This document shows, one piece after another, positions 15,742-33,972 of a stretch of 41,628 bases of DNA. The notes beneath the pieces were generated by a model, which had not been told where the DNA came from, made no database searches, and worked only from the letters and a program-made list of their open reading frames with translations. Position 1 is the stretch's first letter. Every line of letters starts with the position of its first letter. Both the position numbers and the translations under genes were made by a program. The DNA is from Chiloscyllium plagiosum (lineage: Eukaryota): the NCBI RefSeq assembly GCF_004010195.1, contig NC_057719.1, forward strand, positions 44,925,097 to 44,966,724. Direction: 5' to 3'.

Positions 15742-15946
15742 AGGAGAAAGTGAGGACTGCAGATGCTGGAGATCGGAGGTGAAAAATGTGTTGCTGGAAA
15801 AGCGCAGCAGGTCAGGCAGCATCCTAGGAGCAGGAGAATCGACGTTTTGGGCATAAGCCTGAAGAAGGGCTTATGCCCGAAACGTCGATTCTCCTGCTCC
15901 TTGGATGCTGCCTGATCTGCGCTTTTCCAGCAACACATTTTTCAGC
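15742..15946. mobile_element. Palindromic PLE mini-insertion (minus pLTR + plus pLTR) with intact hammerhead core and imperfect 16-bp TSD
   Basis: Arms 15780-15858 and 15868-15944 are inverted repeats. Flanks atgtctcataagagga (15730-15745) and atgtaccataagagga (15947-15962). Confidence 0.85.
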
Positions 15947-20575: not shown

Positions 20576-21152
20576 ACTGGGAACTGAGGTCATGTTGTGG
20601 CAATACAGGCCACTTTTGGAATATTGCTTTCAATTCTGGTTTACCTGCTATAGGAAAGATGTTGTGAAACTTGAGCGGTTTGGAAAAGATCTACAAGGAT
20701 GTTGCCAGGGTTGGAAGGTTTGAGCTCGAGGTACAGGTTGAATAGGCTGGGGCTGTTTTCCCTGGAGTTGGAGGCTGAGGGTTGACCTTATAGAAGTTTC
20801 TAAAATCACGAGGGGCATAGATAGGGTGAAAAGTGAAGGTATCTTCCCCAGGGTAGCAGAATTCAAAACTAGAGGGCATAGGTTTAAGGTGAGAGATGAA
20901 AAATCCAAGAAGGACCTAAGAGGCAACTTTTTTCATGCAGAGGGTGGTGCATATAGAATAAACTGTCAGAGGAAGTGGTGGAGGCTGCTGCATTTAAAAG
21001 GCATCTAGATGGGTATATGAATAGGAAGGGTTTGGAGGGATATGGTCCAAATGCTGGCAAATGGGTCTAGATTAATTCAGGATATCTCGTTGATGTGAAT
21101 GAGTTGGACCAAAGGGTCTGTTGCTGTACAGCTCTATTACTCTATGACTCTA
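20576..21152 (+). mobile_element. CR1 (HER1-like) LINE 3' fragment
   Basis: Reverse-complement homologue of 32170-32760; ends in the tail ctctattactctatgactctat. Confidence 0.9.
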
Positions 21153-21267
21153 TATTAATTATAAAAGGAGCAACAATTTATATTTCATGAAAAAAGGGGT
21201 ACTGATTGATTGGCAACTGAACCCTGATTAAGATATGCCATGGAGAAAGCTCCAGAAAACAGTTTTT

Positions 21268-21620
21268 ACTCTTTCACAGGGTATGACTGCCTCACTGCAG
21301 GACCAACATTTATTGTCCATCCTTATTACTATTGAACTAAGTGGCTTGCTGGACTAATTCAGAGTCAACCACGTTTTTGTGGGTTTAGAGGCACATGTGG
21401 GCCAATCCAGTTAAGAATGACAGATTCTTGTCCCTAAAAGCCATCAATGAAACAGATGGATTTTTACAACAGTTGATGAGAGTTTCATGGGCACTATTAT
21501 TGAGACAGGCTCTCAATTTAAAACTTCAACTCGATTTAAATTCCACCCACTGTAGCAGGATTTCAACCTCTCTATGGAAGTTACTAGTCTACTGACTTTA
21601 TCACTATGTCATCATCTCCT
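21268..21620 (-). mobile_element. tRNA-derived SINE (same family as 14862-15255)
   Basis: catttattgtccatcctt...gaactaagtggctt...cacatgtgggcca...cagatggatttttacaaca...aaattccaccc mirror the 14862-15255 copy. Confidence 0.7.
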
Positions 21621-21776
21621 CAAGCTTTTCTTTATGTTAAATAAAAGGTAGGTTAACTCTGATTGATTGAAGTGTTGCCATGGGTTGCAGTTTTCCCCAA
21701 GTTGTTCTTTTAAAAAAAGTACAAGGCCTGGACAGGTTATCTATGTTTACAAACAACAGGGCTTTGAATATGGATA

Positions 21777-22334
21777 TGGAGGGTCGGTGTGGACTGGTTG
21801 GGCCGAAAGGCCTGTTTCCACACTGTAGGGAATCTAATCTAATGTAAATTAATTGGGGATGGGGGAGAGGAGTACGGGTGTTGGGAGAGGGGAAATATAG
21901 GTTTACAAAGTAAGAGTATATAGCAAAATTAAAAGGCAGTTATTTGGATAACGATACCCAGAGTGGTATAGGAAGGGACATAACATACAAACATGGAAAA
22001 ATAGCTGTAAATAGGGTCAAAAAGCAGAAAAATATTTTTTTATGAAAGGCAGAATTAATGGTTCTTTACTTGAATGTACACAGTATTCAGAACAAAATAG
22101 ATGAATTAACTGCACAAATTCAGGTTAATGGATATGATTTCATAACCATGACAGAGACATGGTTACAAAGAGATCAAAGCTGGGAACTAAATATTCAGGA
22201 GTATATGACTTTTCAAAAGACATGCAGGAAAAAGAGGGTGGTAGGTTAGCAGTGTTGGTATGTATGGGATGGAATAAGTACAACAGCAAGAATGATCTTG
22301 AATCATATGTTATAGAATCCATACGGGCGGATGT
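21777..22334 (+). repeat. Left arm of a ~557-bp inverted duplication (V-SINE tail + CR1 ORF1/ORF2 junction and endonuclease start)
   Basis: Near-identical reverse complement of 24378-24934. Both arms encode the identical MVLYLNVHSIQNKIDELTAQIQVNGYDFITMTETWLQ (CR1 APE endonuclease). Confidence 0.95.
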
Positions 22335-23145
22335 AATAAATCAAAAGGGAAAGAAGTCACTGGTAGGAATTCTCTATAGCCCCCAACCGTTGCTGTACAG
22401 TGGAACAGAGAATAAATCAGGAAATAACGATCGCATGTAAAAAGGTAGAACAATACTCATGAATGACTTTAATCTTTAATCAGAAAGAGAATGAAAGGTT
22501 GTGGGGAAAAGACAGGAAAGTGAAATTGAGGATTATCAGATTAGCCATAATCTCATTGAATGGCAGAAGAGATTGAATGGGCAGAATGGTCTACTCCTGC
22601 TCCTATGTTTTACAGACTTATGAACTTTGATATGACCACATTTGGAATAGTGTGTGCAGTTTTGGTCTCCATATGCAAGGAAAGATCTACTTCTATTGGA
22701 GGCAGTACAGTGAAGAGTCAACATATTGGTTCCTGCAATAAGTGGATTGTCTCTATGTTCTCTAGAGTTTAGAAGAATGAAAGATGACCCCAATGAATCT
22801 TACAATATTTTGAAAGGATTTGATAAGATAGAGACTGAGAGTTTGTCTCCCCGAGCTGAAGAATCTGAAGCTTGGGTCACGACAACAGTCTTAGGATAAG
22901 AGGATCCATCATTTAAGAAAAAAACAGTAAGAAAATGTTTCAATCAAAAGATTGTGAATCTTTGAAATTATTAACTCAGAGAGTTGAACCATCACTAGAT
23001 ATATTTAAAGCTGGGATAGGCAGATATTCAGTCTATCAGGAAATCGTGGGATATAGGGAGATGACAACAACATTGAGCTGAGTTCAAAGAGCAGCCACAG
23101 TCATATTGGATGGCAGTACAAGGTGTATGGTCTAGTCCTGCTCTC
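21844..23145 (+). mobile_element. Old CR1 LINE relic (endonuclease start, internally deleted RT, 3' end)
   Basis: APE motifs YLNxxSI..K..EL and TETWL, later aatgactttaat (cf. GDFN); RT-end sequence gaccacatttggaatagtgtgtgcagttttggtctcc; tail tcctgctc at ~23140. Confidence 0.8.
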
Positions 23146-23259
23146 ATCTCTTGTGTACTTTTAATGTGTGCTCAATTGCAAAAATCAAATGCTTTTTCCA
23201 TAAAATTGGTGGCTTCTTAAAGACCACTGTGTGATAATATTTGAAGACAATCCATCCTA

Positions 23260-24257
23260 CAGCTTTGTAAACAGAACTTGTACGCATTTGCTCACTGAAT
23301 GAGCTTGGTGCCAAAACATGAAGCATAAGTGATCCTGTGGGATAATACCTACCCAACCGGATATACGGAATGGTCATCATCTATCATGAAAGCTCATAGT
23401 TGGGCCTAAGGCCGTCACTTTCAGTCCTGCAAAGTGCCAAGTATACCTTCGATTAACCTGAAAGATAAGGTGTCTCAAGATATATCAAGAAGCAGTGATG
23501 CTAGAGGTTATACAGTTGTTTTTTAATTTCAAAATATAATTTATTCATAATATAAGTTTATGTAAATACATGCTCACTAAAGCAGTTTGTTTCTTCATAT
23601 GCTAATGTGAAAAACCAAACAAATATCGGAGTTTGACTCCATTCAGCAAATAAACCAAAGGGATCTCTTACTTGTATAGAACTATATTTATATACATTTG
23701 AGGTTCTGGACAGATGCCCCATTTAATTTCAGCAGAAAGACCTTAGATAGTGATGTTTCTCCACTGTGCCTTGGCAGCAGCTGTGCCAAGCTTTAGTGAA
23801 TCTCTCAGCACGTAGTCTAAAACCTTGAAACATGCCAGTCTGGAACATTCTGTCGAGGTCAACTCCTTGCTCTGGAAAACCAACAGGTTCCAGCGACAGC
23901 AAATGCTGCTGCTGCTATGCAGTTGCAATAAGTGATGTTCCACAACAGGATACTGCCAGCAAGCCAAAACAACATTCTTTCTACCACACAAATGAGTAAT
24001 TGCCAGCAATTAAGCCATACCTCCCAAAGACTGGGAAATGATTTCAAGCATTGTATCCTTTCAGCTGTTTCCAAACGTGAGAGTACTTACTGAATTCAAC
24101 CAATTAATGCGCTCACAACACAGAACATATTCTTAATGGTAAGCATAAGAATATGAACAGATATCACAGAATAATCCCAAGTGTGTCAATTACACTGACC
24201 ATCAATTTAAGATTATCAGTTGGGCTTGCAATGTAGCTCATTATATTTGCTAAAAGC
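23260..24257 (+). mobile_element. Old PLE, RT-thumb/linker/GIY-YIG region, interrupted by a Tx1/L1 fragment and cut by the inversion breakpoint at 24257
   Basis: Decayed translations LVNR...ILWDNTYP...GPKAVTFSPAKCQVYLRLT*KDKVSQ; CCYAVA...RILPASQNNILSTTQMSN...HTSQRL; NNPKCVNYTDHQFKIISWACNVAH.YLLKA. Confidence 0.7.
23518..23895 (-). mobile_element. Tx1/L1-clade LINE 3' end
   Basis: ORF end RWNLLVFQSKELTSTECSRLACFKVLDYVLRDSLKLGTAAAKAQWRNITI*, followed by a 3'UTR with AATAAA and an A-rich tail on the minus strand. Confidence 0.7.
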
Positions 24258-24343
24258 AAGAATGATCTTGAATCATATGTTATAGAATCCATACGGGCAG
24301 ATGTAATAAATCAAAAGGGAAAGAAGTTACTGGTAGGAATTCT
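24255..24343 (+). repeat. 89-bp direct copy of 22285-22373 (templated insert 1)
   Basis: agcaagaatgatcttgaatcatatgttatagaatccatacgggc(a/g)gatgtaataaatcaaaagggaaagaagt(t/c)actggtaggaattct; 2 mismatches. Confidence 0.95.
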
Positions 24344-24378
24344 GTGATATCTGTTCATAATCATATGCTTACCATTAA
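24339..24378 (-). repeat. 40-bp inverted copy of 24133-24172 (templated insert 2)
   Basis: attctgtgatatctgttcataatcatatgcttaccattaa versus the reverse complement of ttaatggtaagcataagaatatgaacagatatcacagaat; 2 mismatches. Confidence 0.92.
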
Positions 24379-24934
24379 CATCCGCCCATATGGATTCTAT
24401 AACATATGATTCAAGATCATTCTTGCTGTTGTACTTATTCCATCCCATACATACCAACACTGCTAACCTACTACCCTCTTTTTCCTGCATGTCTTTTGAA
24501 AAGTCATATACTCCTGAATATTTAGTTCCCAGCTTTGATCTCTTTGTAACCATGTCTCTGTCATGGTTATGAAATCATATCCATTAACCTGAATTTGTGC
24601 AGTTAATTCATCTATTTTGTTCTGAATACTGTGTACATTCAAGTAAAGAACCATTAATCCTGCCTTTCTAAAAAAATATTTTTTGCTTTTTGACCCTATT
24701 TACAGCTATTTTTCTATGTTTGTATGTTATGTCCCTTCCTATACCACTCTGGGTATCGTTATCCAAATAACTGCCTTTTAATTTTGCTATATACTCTTAC
24801 TTTGTAAACCTATATTTCCCCTCTCCCAACACCCGTACTCCTCTCCCCCCATCCCCAATTAATTTACATTAGATTAGATTCCCTACAGTGTGGAAATAAG
24901 CCCTTCGGCTCAACCAGTCCACACCAACCCTCCA
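24378..24934 (-). repeat. Right arm of the ~557-bp inverted duplication
   Basis: Reverse complement of 21777-22334, with roughly a dozen differences by eye. Confidence 0.95.
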
Positions 24935-25184
24935 AAGAATAACCTACCCAGACCCATTTCCCTCTGACTAATGCACCTAACACGATGGGCAATTTAGCAT
25001 GGCCAATTCACCTAACCTGCACATCTTTGGACTGTGGGAGGAAACCGGAGTACCCGGAGGAAACCCACGCAGACACAGGGAGAATGTGCAAACTCCACAC
25101 AGACAATCACCCAAGACTAGAATCGAACCTGGGACCCAGGTGCTGTGAGGCTGCAGTGTTAGCCATTGAGCCACCATGATGCCC
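24868..25184 (-). mobile_element. V-SINE (HE1-like), full length, inserted in the CR1
   Basis: tRNA-like head (ggtggctcaatggctaacactgcagcctcacagc...ggttcgattct), V-domain tgtgtggagtttgcacattctccctgtgtctgcgtgggtttcctccggg, tail tttccacactgtagggaatctaatctaat. Confidence 0.92.
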
Positions 25185-25189
25185 TTAAA

Positions 25190-25545
25190 GTCATCGTGCC
25201 GCCCTTAATGTTCTCCCTACATTCCTAGTTATGTAATTCACCAAGACGTTGGTCCCAGTATGGTTCAAATGAGGCCATGACACCAGAACAGCTCTGTTCC
25301 ATGCCAGTACTGATGCTAGAGCCCCACAAACTTAAAACCTTTCACCCATACCAATCTTTAAGCCATGTATTTAACTCCTTTACTTTACTTTCCCAATGCC
25401 AATTTTCCCATGACTCGGGCTGTAGACCAGAGATGATCACCTTGAAGGTTCTGCTTTTCAATTTAGCTCCTCATTGTTCAAAGTCTTTCAACACAGCCTC
25501 CTTTCTCATCCTGCCAATGTCATTGGTGCCAGCATGAATGATAAA
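25190..25545 (-). mobile_element. CR1 ORF1 (SGNH esterase domain) relic; 5' part of the CR1 whose 3' part lies inverted at 22335-23145
   Basis: Minus frame IHAGTNDIGRMRKEAVLKDFEQ*GAKLKSRTFKVIISGLQPE...VKELNTWLKDWYG contains the HxGTND esterase motif of CR1 ORF1. Confidence 0.85.
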
Positions 25546-26283
25546 TACCCGATCCATTCCCTCCGTCTATATTCTTCTTCAGCATTGACCTGTGCAATTG
25601 CAAAAAGCCTGCTTTATTCTTTTACTCTGGTCCCTTTCCGATAAACATTAACATGCTATCTGTCTTCCTATTTGCCAGTTGCAGTAGATTCCAGCACTTT
25701 CCTGATGCCTGATGCCTCACGTCAGACTAATTAGTGTATTGTTCCCATTTTTCTTGTATAGTGGCGCTACATTTAGTAAATTCCAATTCGGTTGGGCCAG
25801 TCCAGGATCCAGGGAATTTTGGAAAATTATGGCCAGTGCATCCACGATCTCTGCAGCTATCTCTTTCAGAACTCTAAGATGTTGGTCATCTGATCCTAGC
25901 GATTTGTCAGATCTCAGTCCTTTTTTCCAGTATTTTTTCTCTGTTAAAATTAATTACCTTAATTTCATTACTCTGTTTATCACTTAAGTAATCCTGTATT
26001 TCATGATATATACAGCTTATATTTTTGACTGTAAAGACAGACACAAAATATTTCTTCCATATTCCACTGTTTTCACATTCCACACCATTTTTTATGTCTG
26101 TGATCCTAATAGACCAACATTTACTTTAGCTATTCCACCCCTATTTATATTTTATAGTCATATTTTAATAAAAATTTATATTTTTAGATTATACCCTTTG
26201 CTCTTTGATTTTGTATTTGGTTTTTTATTCTTTTTCTGAATCTACTGGTGGCAGTTTTCTGGTTCGAGCTTCGATAGAAGGGA

Positions 26284-26334
26284 TTGAATTTCTTAAGAGT
26301 GACACTGTTGAATTTCTTAAGAGTGACACTGTTG
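26284..26334 (+). repeat. Perfect 24-bp tandem duplication
   Basis: ttgaatttcttaagagtgacactg x2 plus ttg. Confidence 0.95.
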
Positions 26335-29517: not shown

Positions 29518-29930
29518 TTAGCACTAAGATCAAGTGGCCCTGCTGTGTTTAGATTTGCCTACTGTGTCAGTTACACACCTTCACACAGCTGGGAAAAATT
29601 GTATAGGGGTTAGTTTTCTGCCTTTGGGACTTGCCTATAATTTTAAAAGTTCCAGAATTTTACTAACTCTACAAAAACCCAGGCCAGAAAGTACAATTCC
29701 TTCTCCTCTACCATAACAGGTTTCTTTAGCCTGTACTTGTACATAGTGGGTATTCTCCTTCCTCCCTACAGTATAAATCTACATCACTCATCTTAATACT
29801 TGACTCATGTGATACTTTACATTTACCAGCATCCATTTACATGTAACTTTCCAACTGGATTGCAATTGAATCCAAATGCAAACTGTTTACTGGACCCAAT
29901 ATTTTTGCTGCTCACCCTTTATTAGACCTA

Positions 29931-30120
29931 GTCAGAAATCACACAATGCCAGGTTCTAGTCCCACAAGTTTATTTCAACTCACAAGCTTTCGGAGCACTG
30001 TTCCTTCGACAATGCTCCAAAAGCTTGTGATTCCAAATAAACTTGTTGGATTACAGCCTGATGTCATGTGCCTTCTGACTTTGTCCACCCCAGCCTGACA
30101 CCTGCACCTCCACATCATGG
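29931..30120. mobile_element. Palindromic pLTR pair from a third PLE family
   Basis: Inverted arms gtcagaa...caagtttattt...tcacaagctttcggagca / tgctccaaaagcttgtga...aaataaacttg...ttctgac. Contains the hammerhead 3' half GGA(G/A)C-agt-GCTCC-GAAAgctt. Confidence 0.7.
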
Positions 30121-30818: not shown

Positions 30819-31697
30819 AGGAGGAAGTGAGGACTGCAGATGATGGAGATCAGAGTCGAGAGTGTGGTGCTGGTAAAGCACAGCAGGTCAGGCAGCATCC
30901 GAGGTGCAGAAGAGTCGATGTTTTGGGCATAAGGCCTTCATCGGGAAAGAGGCTTGTGGGCCAAGGGGCCTAAGAGATAAATTGGAGGAGGGTGGATCTG
31001 GGGGGAAAGTAACTGGGAGTGTGATAAGTAGATGAAGGTGGGGGTGAAGGTGAGAAGTCAGAGAGGAAGGTGGAGCAGATAGGTGGGAAGAAAGATGGAT
31101 AGGTTATAGGGAGTTGGAGGCTTGGGAGGGGAGGGGAAATGACAAAACTGGTGAAATCCACATTAATCCCATGTTGTGGTTGCAGGGTCCCAAGGCAGAA
31201 GATAAGGCATTCTTCCTTCAGGCATCAGATGGTTAGGTTTGGCGATGGAGGCAGCCCAGGACCTGCATTTCCTTGGTAGAGTAGGAGGGGGAGTTACAGT
31301 GTTCGGCCATTGGGTGGTTTGGGTGGTTGGGTTGGTTGGTGTGGATGTCCCAGAGATGTTCTCTGAAACAATCCTGCTGGTGTCCTGTCTCCCCGATGTA
31401 GAGGAGACCACATTGGGTGCAACAGATACAGTAGATGTATGGAAGTACAGGTAAATTTCTGGAAGTACAGGTAAATTTCCGTTGGATGTGGAAGGACACT
31501 TTGCAGCCTTGGACAGAGCTGAAGGGGAAGGTGTGGGCGTAGGTTTTGCGGTGGTAAGGAAAGGTGCCGAGAGTGGAGGATGAGTTGGTGGGAGATTTGG
31601 ATCTGATAAGGGAGTAGTGGAGGGAATGGTTTCTATGAAATGCTGATAGGGGTGGGCAGGGAAATATATCTTTAGTGGTGGGGTCTGTTTACAGGTG
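30819..31697 (-). mobile_element. PLE 3' half (GIY-YIG endonuclease + pLTR), left arm of a large outward-facing inverted PLE insertion
   Basis: ORF 31233-31499 FTCTS...IYCICCTQCGLLYIGETG...FREHLWDI...PMAEHCNS (GIY-YIG with CxxC); pLTR at 30819-30947; internal 20-bp tandem duplication at 31440-31479. Confidence 0.9.
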
Positions 31698-32169
31698 GTG
31701 GAGGTGGCAGAGGAGGCCTTCTTCTTCAAGGACTGCAATTTCCCCTCCCACATGATTGATGATTGCCTCTGGTGCATGTCCACCAATTGCCACACCTCCG
31801 CCCTTGACCCCCATCACTCCCAATGCAACAGGACAGAACCCTCCTGGTCCTCACCATCCACCCCACCAACATCTGCATACATCACATCATCCTCTGCCAC
31901 TTCTTCCACCTGCAAACAGACCCTACCATTTGGGATATATCCACCCCTATGTGCATTCCAGAGAGACCATTCCCTCCATAACTCCTGCGTCAGGTCCATG
32001 CCTCCCACCAGCCCGACCCCCGGCACCTTCCCCTGCCACCGTAGGAAGTGCAGATACTGCGCCCACAGCTTCCCCTCACACCTCCGTCCAATGCCCCAAA
32101 GGATCCTTCCACATCCGACAGAAATTTGCCAGTACATCCACTCACGCCATCTACCAGACGCCAACTTGT

Positions 32170-33124
32170 CATAGAGTCATAGAGGTGTACAGTACAGAAA
32201 CAGACCCTTCTGTCCATGCCAACCAGATATCCCAACCCAATCTAGTCTCACCTGCTAGTACCCAGCCCACATCCCTCCAAACCCTTCCTATTCATATACC
32301 CATCCAAATGCCTTTTAAATGTTGCAATTGTACTAGCCTCCACCACTTCCTCTGGTAGCTCATTCCATACATGTGCCACCCTCTGGGTGCAAATGTTGCC
32401 CCTTAGGTCTCTTTTATATCTTTCCCCTCTCACCCTAAACCTATGCCCTCTAGTTCTGGACTACCTGACCCCAGGGAAAAAACGTTGTCTATTTATCCTA
32501 TCCATGCCCCCCATAATTTTGTAAACCTCAATAAGGTCATCCCTCAGCCTCAGACGCTCCAGGGAAAACAGCCCCAGCCTGTTCAGCCTCTCCCTGTAGC
32601 TCAGATCCTCAAACCCTGGCAACATCCTTGTAAATCTTTTCTGAACCCTTTCAAGTTTCAAAACATCTTTCCGATAGGAAGGAGACCAGAATTGCACTCA
32701 ATATTTCGACAGTGGCCTAACCAATGTCCTGTACAGCCACAACATGACCTCCCAACCCCTGTACTCAATACTTTGACCAATAAAGAAAACATACCAAATG
32801 CCTTCTTCACTATCCTATCTACTTTCAAGGAGCTATGAACCTGCATTCCAAGGTCTCTTTGTTTAGCAACACTCCACAGGACCTTACCATTAAGTGTATA
32901 AGTCCTGCTAAGATTTGCTTTCCCAAAATGCAGCAACTCACATTTATCTGAATTAAACTTCATCTGCCTCTCCTCAGCCCATTGGCCCATCTGATCAAGA
33001 TCCTGTTGTAATCTGAGGTAACCTTCTTCGCTGTCCACTACACCTCCAATTTTGGTGTTATCTGCAAACTTACTAACTATACCTCTTATGCTCAACTCCA
33101 AATCATTTATATAAATGACGAAAA
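32170..33124 (-). mobile_element. CR1 (HER1-like) LINE, 5'-truncated, RT to 3' tail
   Basis: FVIYINDL...SKFADNTKIGGVVDSEEGYLRLQQDLDQMGQWAEERQMKFNSDKC; QFWSPSYRKDVLKLERVQKRFTRMLPG; tail catagagtcatagag. Confidence 0.95.
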
Positions 33125-33571
33125 ATGTGAATTGTTTCAGAGAACATCTCTGGGACATGCGCACCAACCAACCCCACCGCCCCGTGGGCGAACACATTAA
33201 CTCCCTCTCTCACTCCACCAAGGACAAGCAGGTCCTGGGCCTCCTCCATCGCCACTCCCTAAACACCCAATGCCTGGAGGAAGAATGCCTCATCTTCTGC
33301 CTTGGGACCCTGCAACCACAACACTGGATCAATGTGGTTCTCACCAGTTTTCTCATTTCCCCACCCCCACTTTATCCCAGTGCCAAGCTTCCAACTTGGC
33401 TCCACCCACTTGACCTAGCCATCTTCCTTCCCATCTAACGTCTCCACCCTCCTCTCCGACTTATCACTTTTAGTCCCACCTTCATGAACCTATCACATTC
33501 CCAGCTACCTTTCCCAAGCTCCACCCCTCTCCCATTTATCTCTCAGTTCTCCTGGCCCACAATCCTCATTC

Positions 33572-33599
33572 CTGATGAAGGGCTTATGCCCGAAACGTT
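33572..33599 (+). ncRNA. Minimal hammerhead ribozyme motif (PLE type)
   Basis: CTGATGA-a-GGGC-ttat-GCCC-GAAA-cgtt (AACGTT palindrome, GUU triplet). Confidence 0.7.
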
Positions 33600-33972
33600 G
33601 ATTTTACTGCTTCACAGATAATGCGTGACCTGCTGTGCTTTTCCAACACTATACTCTTGACCAGGAAGTTTGGGGTATTCCAGGTTAGAAATCCAGCATC
33701 TGCAGTCCTCACTTTCTCCTGTATTCCAGGTTATCCTGGCAGTGCCGAGTTGTTGCCGGAATGGTGGGTGCTCAATGGAGCTAGAGCTAGATGAGTGGGA
33801 GGTCATAAAGGTCGAATGGGTAATTAATGAGGCATGTTTATTAAGATACAGTGAGAGCACCATTAGGTATTGAGGTGAGAAACCTTCCATAAAACCAAAT
33901 GCAATTGGTACTTAACCAAAAAAAAATGACTCAGCCTTTGTGGCATCTGATCTGAATTCACCTTGTGTAGAC

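Follow-up and report, generated by a model that had tools for sequence, protein, structure and literature searches.

What kind of event leaves a chain of short copied pieces at one end of an inverted segment, and did the chain and the inversion arise together? The question is raised by a locus of the shark Chiloscyllium plagiosum, within a stretch of 41,628 nucleotides (NCBI RefSeq assembly GCF_004010195.1, contig NC_057719.1, positions 44,925,097 to 44,966,724 of the forward strand) that we refer to as the window and to which all positions below belong. A preliminary description, made from the letters alone, had reported three template switches at the right breakpoint of an inversion, joined by microhomology and yielding an 89-nt direct and a 40-nt inverted copy of nearby DNA, and had ascribed them to a FoSTeS/MMBIR or Pol-theta-like process.

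Pieces, donors and joints

Aligned against itself, the window yields the features collected in Table 1. Insert 1 is identical to its donor at 87/89 positions (self-BLAST E=2e-37) and insert 2 to the reverse complement of 24133-24172 at 38/40 (self-BLAST E=7e-11), and the right arm, from 24378 on, pairs with 21777-22334 over 559 alignment columns at the identity given in the table; the coordinates first reported for these pieces are correct. The exact microhomologies that had been named for the joints were likewise confirmed as AGC (3 nt, J1), ATTCT (5 nt, J2) and A (1 nt, J3, or ATTA if a 1-nt bulge is allowed). At the local base composition, their chance probabilities are 0.06, 0.006 and 0.46, respectively, so that only the 5-nt joint is unlikely individually, and a sum of at least 9 nt over the three joints has P=0.003. 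While all three joints stand, a fourth, J0 (21776|21777), had been missed. It shows a visible microhomology of about 1 nt, and the left arm, which starts abruptly inside a SINE tail, belongs to the copied chain as its longest piece.

Table 1. Features of the locus, with positions in the window.
Feature	Position	Strand	Remarks
Left flank, degenerate retroelement relic (3' half)	21640..21776	-	Ends at joint J0; identified by translation, without database homologue
Left arm, derived 558-nt inverted copy of the right arm	21777..22334	+	97.9% identity to 24378-24934
Left arm, outer 44 nt	21777..21820	+	5/9 of the arm substitutions; SINE 3' stem-loop with compensatory pair
Insert 1 donor	22285..22373	+	Straddles the inner end of the arm (22334)
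Single-copy segment, 1923 nt	22335..24257	+	Inverted relative to its original neighbour
Insert 2 donor	24133..24172	+	Lies 85-124 nt away from the break and shares sequence with a native 12-bp hairpin (24126-24155)
Insert 1, 89-nt direct copy	24255..24343	+	J1 via AGC, J2 via ATTCT
Insert 2, 40-nt inverted copy	24339..24378	-	J3 via 1 nt
Right arm, native, 557 nt	24378..24934	-	Runs on into the SINE and CR1-like ORF1 at its right
Whole SINE between CR1-like ORF1 and ORF2	24868..25200	-	Present before the event; tail duplicated

The hairpin of about 50-bp arms described earlier (24255-24304 / 24378-24427) is also present, with 2 mismatches and a predicted DNA fold of -49.5 kcal/mol. Insert 2 has two changes, 3 nt from each other, that create a 9-nt match to 22301-22309, which 36 of 1350 simulated pairs equalled; this match is a hint that one more small template switch may have taken place. 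The native 12-bp hairpin overlaps one end of the insert 2 donor, with copying starting or stopping inside the stem, and the copied arm ends, on its outer side, at the base of a predicted SINE 3' stem-loop (21777-21845 and 24866-24934).

The native arm and the split relic

Read on the minus strand, the sequence to the right of the structure holds the end of an ORF1, a whole SINE (26/236 columns of its body depart from the majority among the other window copies), the inter-ORF region, and an endonuclease start that runs through the right arm, in a relic that we take to be CR1-like. Pfam matches were weak and below the cut-off both in the ORF1 end at 25345-25566 (Lipase_GDSL_2, E=0.0012) and in the arm ORF (Exo_endo_phos, E=0.048). 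The left arm comprises the SINE 3' tail, the CR1-like inter-ORF region and the endonuclease start. On the plus strand the CR1-like frame continues across 22334|22335, and the CR1-like ORF order seen at the right (25566 down to 24378, minus strand) resumes on the plus strand in 22335-24257. Because the CR1-like frame and the SINE are continuous with the right arm, whereas the left arm opens within the SINE tail, 24378-24934 is the native arm and 21777-22334 the new copy; the segment 22335-24257 once followed the right arm on the minus strand.

Besides the remainder of the CR1-like relic, this segment holds a relic that is presumably L1/Tx1-like, and the 5' half of a split relic. The latter breaks off at 24257 and seems to resume at 21776, reading on the minus strand. 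We take 21640-21776 to be the GIY-YIG end and terminal repeat of a Penelope-like element, and the halves to make up between them a GIY-YIG C-terminal motif that is short of about two codons. For the split relic, Pfam returned no family, a word search for homologues that included longer and near lengths returned none, and HMMER on representatives gave 2 repetitive, uninformative matches; window-wide blastn, tblastx and nhmmer gave nothing bearing on its label or on how wide the gap at the left break is. Rfam gave 0 matches in 21000-25700, a likeness between 21176-21220 and 21630-21675 is weak and not significant (19/500 shuffles), and at this locus we saw no gene to preserve. A reading of the arms as a native Penelope inverted pseudo-LTR was ruled out: they consist of SINE tail and CR1-like sequence, whereas the inverted arms of native Penelope structures are described as truncated copies of the Penelope element itself (PMC8557442).

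Other repeats in the window include a perfect 24-nt tandem duplication (26287-26334, seen by eye), a 151-nt degenerate palindrome (29930-30080, 74%), and two opposed copies of a LINE 3' end that are 75% alike (20586-21148 and 32168-32751). A 165-nt near-palindrome (15780-15944, 88%) is built from a head-to-head pair of a repeat with about ten occurrences in the window, and its centre carries what we take to be a hammerhead-like motif (CCTGA-N-GA...GAAAC). The inverted repeat 30855-31372 / 33131-33661 (84/507 substitutions) nests another, 31460-31714 / 31890-32140 (49/241), and the two (30855-33661) may together be an inverted insertion of what we take to be the Penelope type.

Junctions in relatives and probable conversion between the arms

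Short-read contigs of four out of 24 listed runs were compared with 21150-24440, one run from organism A (X3), whose label matches the window best, two from organism B (X6 and X8) and one from organism C (X12). A joint was counted as bridged only by contigs with at least 31 letters past it, and all contig figures rest on the records listed for each run, with most pieces lying outside them. J0 is bridged in X6 (62 letters past the joint) and X8 (67), with X12 reaching 30 letters and X3 28; J1 is bridged in X12 (record 23856-24288, 31 letters), and J2 in X3 (contig 24269-24407), which also passes J3 by 29-30 letters, the maximum for a k=31 contig. In X6, record end values indicate an aligned part across J2 (24260-24380) that stops 2 nt past J3. 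Among the records listed, X3 has no bridge of J1, J3 is not seen in B or C contigs, and no single run has all joints.

The preliminary description had called for confirmation from raw reads; the support here comes from the ends of short-read contigs. Simulated unitigs of the rearranged structure (k=31, with the arm difference at 24388 set equal) break at 22314, 22305, 24269 and 24407, while the ancestral order predicts no contig breaks; the X3 record ends coincide with all four predicted positions, and X6 ends at 22314, where insert 1 merges. Because the X3 contigs break exactly as predicted, it is practically certain that the rearranged structure is real and not an assembly artefact. The region is one of high-copy repeats, and thousands of foreign contigs match it at 90% identity or more, as would suit an artefact or the capture of the inserts from other transposon copies. 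Both are extremely improbable, in that contig ends in independent runs fall at the predicted breaks, the junctions occur under three organism labels, and the inserts keep the degenerate letters of their local donors at 87/89 and 38/40 positions.

Flanking sequence differs from the window at 73/2552 positions in X6, 63/2033 in X8 and 83/2375 in X12, a divergence of 2.9% and 3.1% for B and 3.5% for C, compared to 0.5% for A; these counts drop the records within the arms (2/8 of those listed for X6, 1/8 for X8, 3/8 for X12 and 2/8 for X3), and some records that were kept overlap the arm edges by 30-67 nt. Our prediction, made beforehand, that B and C would carry the un-rearranged allele failed, as their contigs show junctions. 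Since the junctions are also found in two relatives that are 2.9-3.5% diverged, the event very probably predates the split of A, B and C. With the epaulette shark as a proxy (7e-10 mutations per generation, repeats probably mutating faster; PMC10587355), this divergence corresponds to 21-25 million generations, for which "millions of generations" is the safe statement. At 22745, B contigs (X8 and X6) carry 19 extra letters that are absent from the window, X3 and X12, and at 24328 B retains the donor's letter in insert 1.

Between the arm interiors there are just 4 differences in 514 sites and 3 one-base indels, compared to 15-18 differences expected from flank divergence (P=0.001 for X6, 0.0004 for X8 and 0.00009 for X12). 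The inserts (2/89 and 2/40) fit species-level divergence, which is exceeded at the outer edge of the left arm (5/44 nt). Because copies made before the split should differ by at least 3%, the near-identity of the interiors argues well for repeated arm-to-arm conversion that keeps the arms 99% alike, a process that we consider probable. The inverted repeat is older than the species split, and its arms are more alike than orthologues, as in Y palindromes and toggling inversions, in which arm-to-arm conversion and, for inverted repeats, flipping of the spacer are known (PMC3723533; bioRxiv 10.1101/2021.12.20.472354). With 557-nt arms of dead repeats and a 2-kb spacer, the locus lies between cases in yeast (7-16 bp arms) and humans (at least 10 kb) (PMC8604942; bioRxiv 10.1101/2021.12.20.472354). 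Homogenisation is not universal in the window, since its two older inverted pairs (84/507 and 49/241 sites) are 17-20% diverged.

Several contig observations fit repeated conversion as well. At 21868, 21926 and 21984, a letter common to both window arms is absent from B and C contigs. In X6 at 21926, a contig of depth 9.2 runs in parallel with about 11 of further depth (single-copy flanks, 8.5-13.4), so that this contig accounts for 9.2 of 20, and depth lacking the change is present as well, which suggests that B has two arms still differing at this site, with depth as a weak hint of copy number; two arms in B would also follow from the limits of the contigs. X3 has one contig, of depth 11.9 (listed single-copy records, 6.5-8.7), that differs from both window arms at 21869, 21923 and 21926, and no listed contig carries the window's letter at these sites, which is a hint only in that contigs can drop variants. 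It is conceivable, though we put it forward tentatively, that a single repair event made a 0.56-kb inverted repeat from dead transposon DNA, that the repeat has homogenised itself over millions of generations, fast enough for both arms to share letters that are still polymorphic within the species (21923 and 21926, X3 vs the window), and that the spacer is a toggling inversion polymorphism.

The preliminary description had proposed that similar divergences of the inserts and the long arms would support one event. The pieces do differ, with 9/173 sites in the pooled inserts and arm edge vs 4/514 in the arm interior (Fisher p=0.0009), but this comparison is misleading and most likely reflects later homogenisation of the arms. 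With conversion between the arms probable, arm or insert divergence can neither date nor unify the event, and dating by either was rejected.

Candidate histories and related rearrangements

Compared with the inferred ancestral order, the window allele carries an inverted segment, one breakpoint of which is accompanied by a duplication. When 22335-24377 is flipped by script, the ancestral order returns and all three extra pieces fall at one point, a net gain of 678 nt from two inverted copies (558 and 40 nt) and one direct copy (89 nt), with all donors on one flank and within 2.5 kb. Both spacer orientations share the same junctions, and short-read contigs cannot tell them apart. The chain need not be the breakpoint of an inversion formed in the same event, as had been proposed, because a flip of the spacer makes the locus one insertion.

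The history that we favour would begin with the Penelope-like relic being broken once in the germline (a double-strand break or a collapsed fork), between the positions that are now 21776 and 24257. A 3' end would have primed on 1-5 nt of microhomology, copied, been released and re-primed three times, using templates on one side and at most 2.5 kb away. Whichever way synthesis ran, it would have had to read both template strands, so that copying would have proceeded in a D-loop or at a fork (MMBIR/SDSA-like synthesis), and Pol theta may have performed the short primings. The 558-nt piece would thereby have formed an inverted repeat around the 2-kb spacer, and a later crossover between the arms would have flipped the spacer into today's inverted order. 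We favour a single break because this history uses both ends of one break and the arms are shown to recombine; moreover, judging by the motif that we take the relic halves to share, these appear to abut at the insertion point. Donors on one flank, as here, were also reported for 16/17 complex inserts in C. elegans (PMC5068794). Against this history, one-step and two-break models give an identical final sequence, and the insert 1 donor straddles the inner end of the arm with the insert 2 donor by the other end, which is the pattern of two ends joined at J1-J3. Against the flip in particular, no allele with the other spacer orientation was seen in the short-read contigs of the four runs, crossovers in Y palindrome P6 are rare relative to conversions (3 vs 146; PMC3723533), and most toggling human inversions have repeats of at least 10 kb, far above 557 nt (bioRxiv 10.1101/2021.12.20.472354). 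Taken together, a single break followed by three rounds of microhomology-primed copying and an arm crossover has, in our judgement, about an even chance of being correct, and we are equally divided on whether the inversion is secondary to the insertion.

The window order could instead have been made directly by one event, a FoSTeS/MMBIR inversion-duplication with four switches that was followed by arm conversion without a flip, which extends the mechanism of the preliminary description. Its path would lead from the left end to the SINE tail, through 2.48 kb copied backwards to the break, and then by way of insert 1 and insert 2 to a rejoining at 24378. For each insert, the donor is found no more than about 125 nt from one or other of the two ends that meet at the right junction, which this path and staggered breaks both explain more simply, and CNV-flanked inversions are a known class (PMC5338099). 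We nevertheless consider it unlikely, as it requires a 2.5-kb copy ending exactly at the break and the loss of 1.9 kb at the receiving end; its advantage of giving the window order at once is small, since with repeated arm recombination today's orientation is a poor guide to the original. A two-break inversion, with a near-blunt left break and right nicks staggered by about 560-600 nt, would produce the inverted duplication by overhang fill and add inserts 1 and 2 by Pol-theta end joining. At Drosophila O7, inverted duplications of 58 and 534 nt have been attributed to staggered breaks (PMC7584159), and the snap-back geometry of insert 2 and microhomologies of 3-5 nt fit Pol-theta joining (PMC13596132), but three lesions are required, the lengths of the two inserts (40 and 89 nt) exceed what is usual for Pol theta (PMC5068794), and according to the Drosophila paper repair synthesis alone can leave such a footprint (PMC7584159), making this route improbable.

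Combinable with any of these models is an origin of the outer 44-65 nt of the left arm from another SINE copy. An already truncated SINE tail could have primed homeologous invasion, the last switch could have gone to SINE RNA or to a different genomic copy, or ectopic conversion could have come later. There are 5 differences in these 44 nt vs 4 in 514 (p=0.0002), the left copy is nearer than the right to the majority of other window copies (1/38 vs 4/38 scored columns differ), one stem pair has changed on both sides such that the 3' stem-loop is kept, and microhomology at J0 is only about 1 nt. Yet a G at 21796 that is common to both copies and absent from all 5 other window copies points to a local origin, part of the excess is accounted for by an edge left unconverted (P=0.013 for a divergence of 3.1%; 0.27 for the upper bound of 7.9%), and hairpin-templated changes cluster and are not independent (PMC8604942). 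We regard a second SINE source as improbable.

Among known systems, the locus resembles Pol-theta (TMEJ) inserts in its short microhomology, repeated priming, one-flank templates and one snap-back-like inverted insert, but its pieces and donor distances are far above the usual values (PMC5068794, PMC13596132). Pol-theta inserts in C. elegans are mostly <25 bp, with about 85% primed within 10 bp (PMC5068794), whereas the pieces here measure 40 nt (donor 85-124 nt from the left break), 89 nt (1884-1972 nt) and 558 nt (up to 2480 nt); if two breaks are assumed, the donor of insert 1 is within 50 nt of the second end. The "Pol-theta-like" label is not supported as it was given: pure Pol-theta joining fails on size and distance, and an MMBIR-like complex templated insertion fits.

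Human complex MMB-TI germline insertions, which make up 33/103 and 26/99 calls per person, share with this locus several local templates, mixed orientation, microhomology or microhomeology of at least 1 nt, and fixation in the germline; unlike them, as far as they are described, the shark locus has a 558-nt piece that forms an inverted repeat with a later history, is non-mammalian and is shared between species (PMC8421209). Here, the insertion exceeds 25 bp, draws on at least two local templates in mixed orientation, and has microhomology of 3, 5 and 1 nt at its joints (about 1 nt at J0). In bridges of templated insertions and local n-jumps, copies of local segments are likewise strung together between a departure from the host site and a return to it, through inverted and direct joints, although those are somatic cancer events and this locus is sub-kilobase and inherited (PMC7025897). 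With dupINV/INVdup (PMC5338099) and the O7 staggered-break inversions of Drosophila (PMC7584159) it shares an inversion, an inverted duplication at one end and filler DNA; what differs is that the same junction set also reads as an insertion, to which the inversion may be secondary. On these features, the locus would qualify as a complex germline MMB-TI or a bridge of templated insertions. The earlier proposal of serial microhomology-primed copying from local templates in the germline is supported.

A scar of this type is already known from human germlines, and its occurrence in a slowly evolving fish lineage widens its range without being surprising; in a search of Creative Commons PMC and bioRxiv (titles and the starts of abstracts), we found no shark report of templated insertion or of inverted-repeat conversion with template switching. 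High similarity between short inverted arms does not measure age: the arms here differ by 0.8%, although the event predates a species split of 3%. Likewise, what looks like an inversion with a duplicated end may have begun as a templated insertion and been flipped afterwards. If the tentative reading of a self-homogenising repeat with a toggling spacer held generally, small inversion-duplications would often be insertions flipped later, and arm identity would under-date them several-fold.
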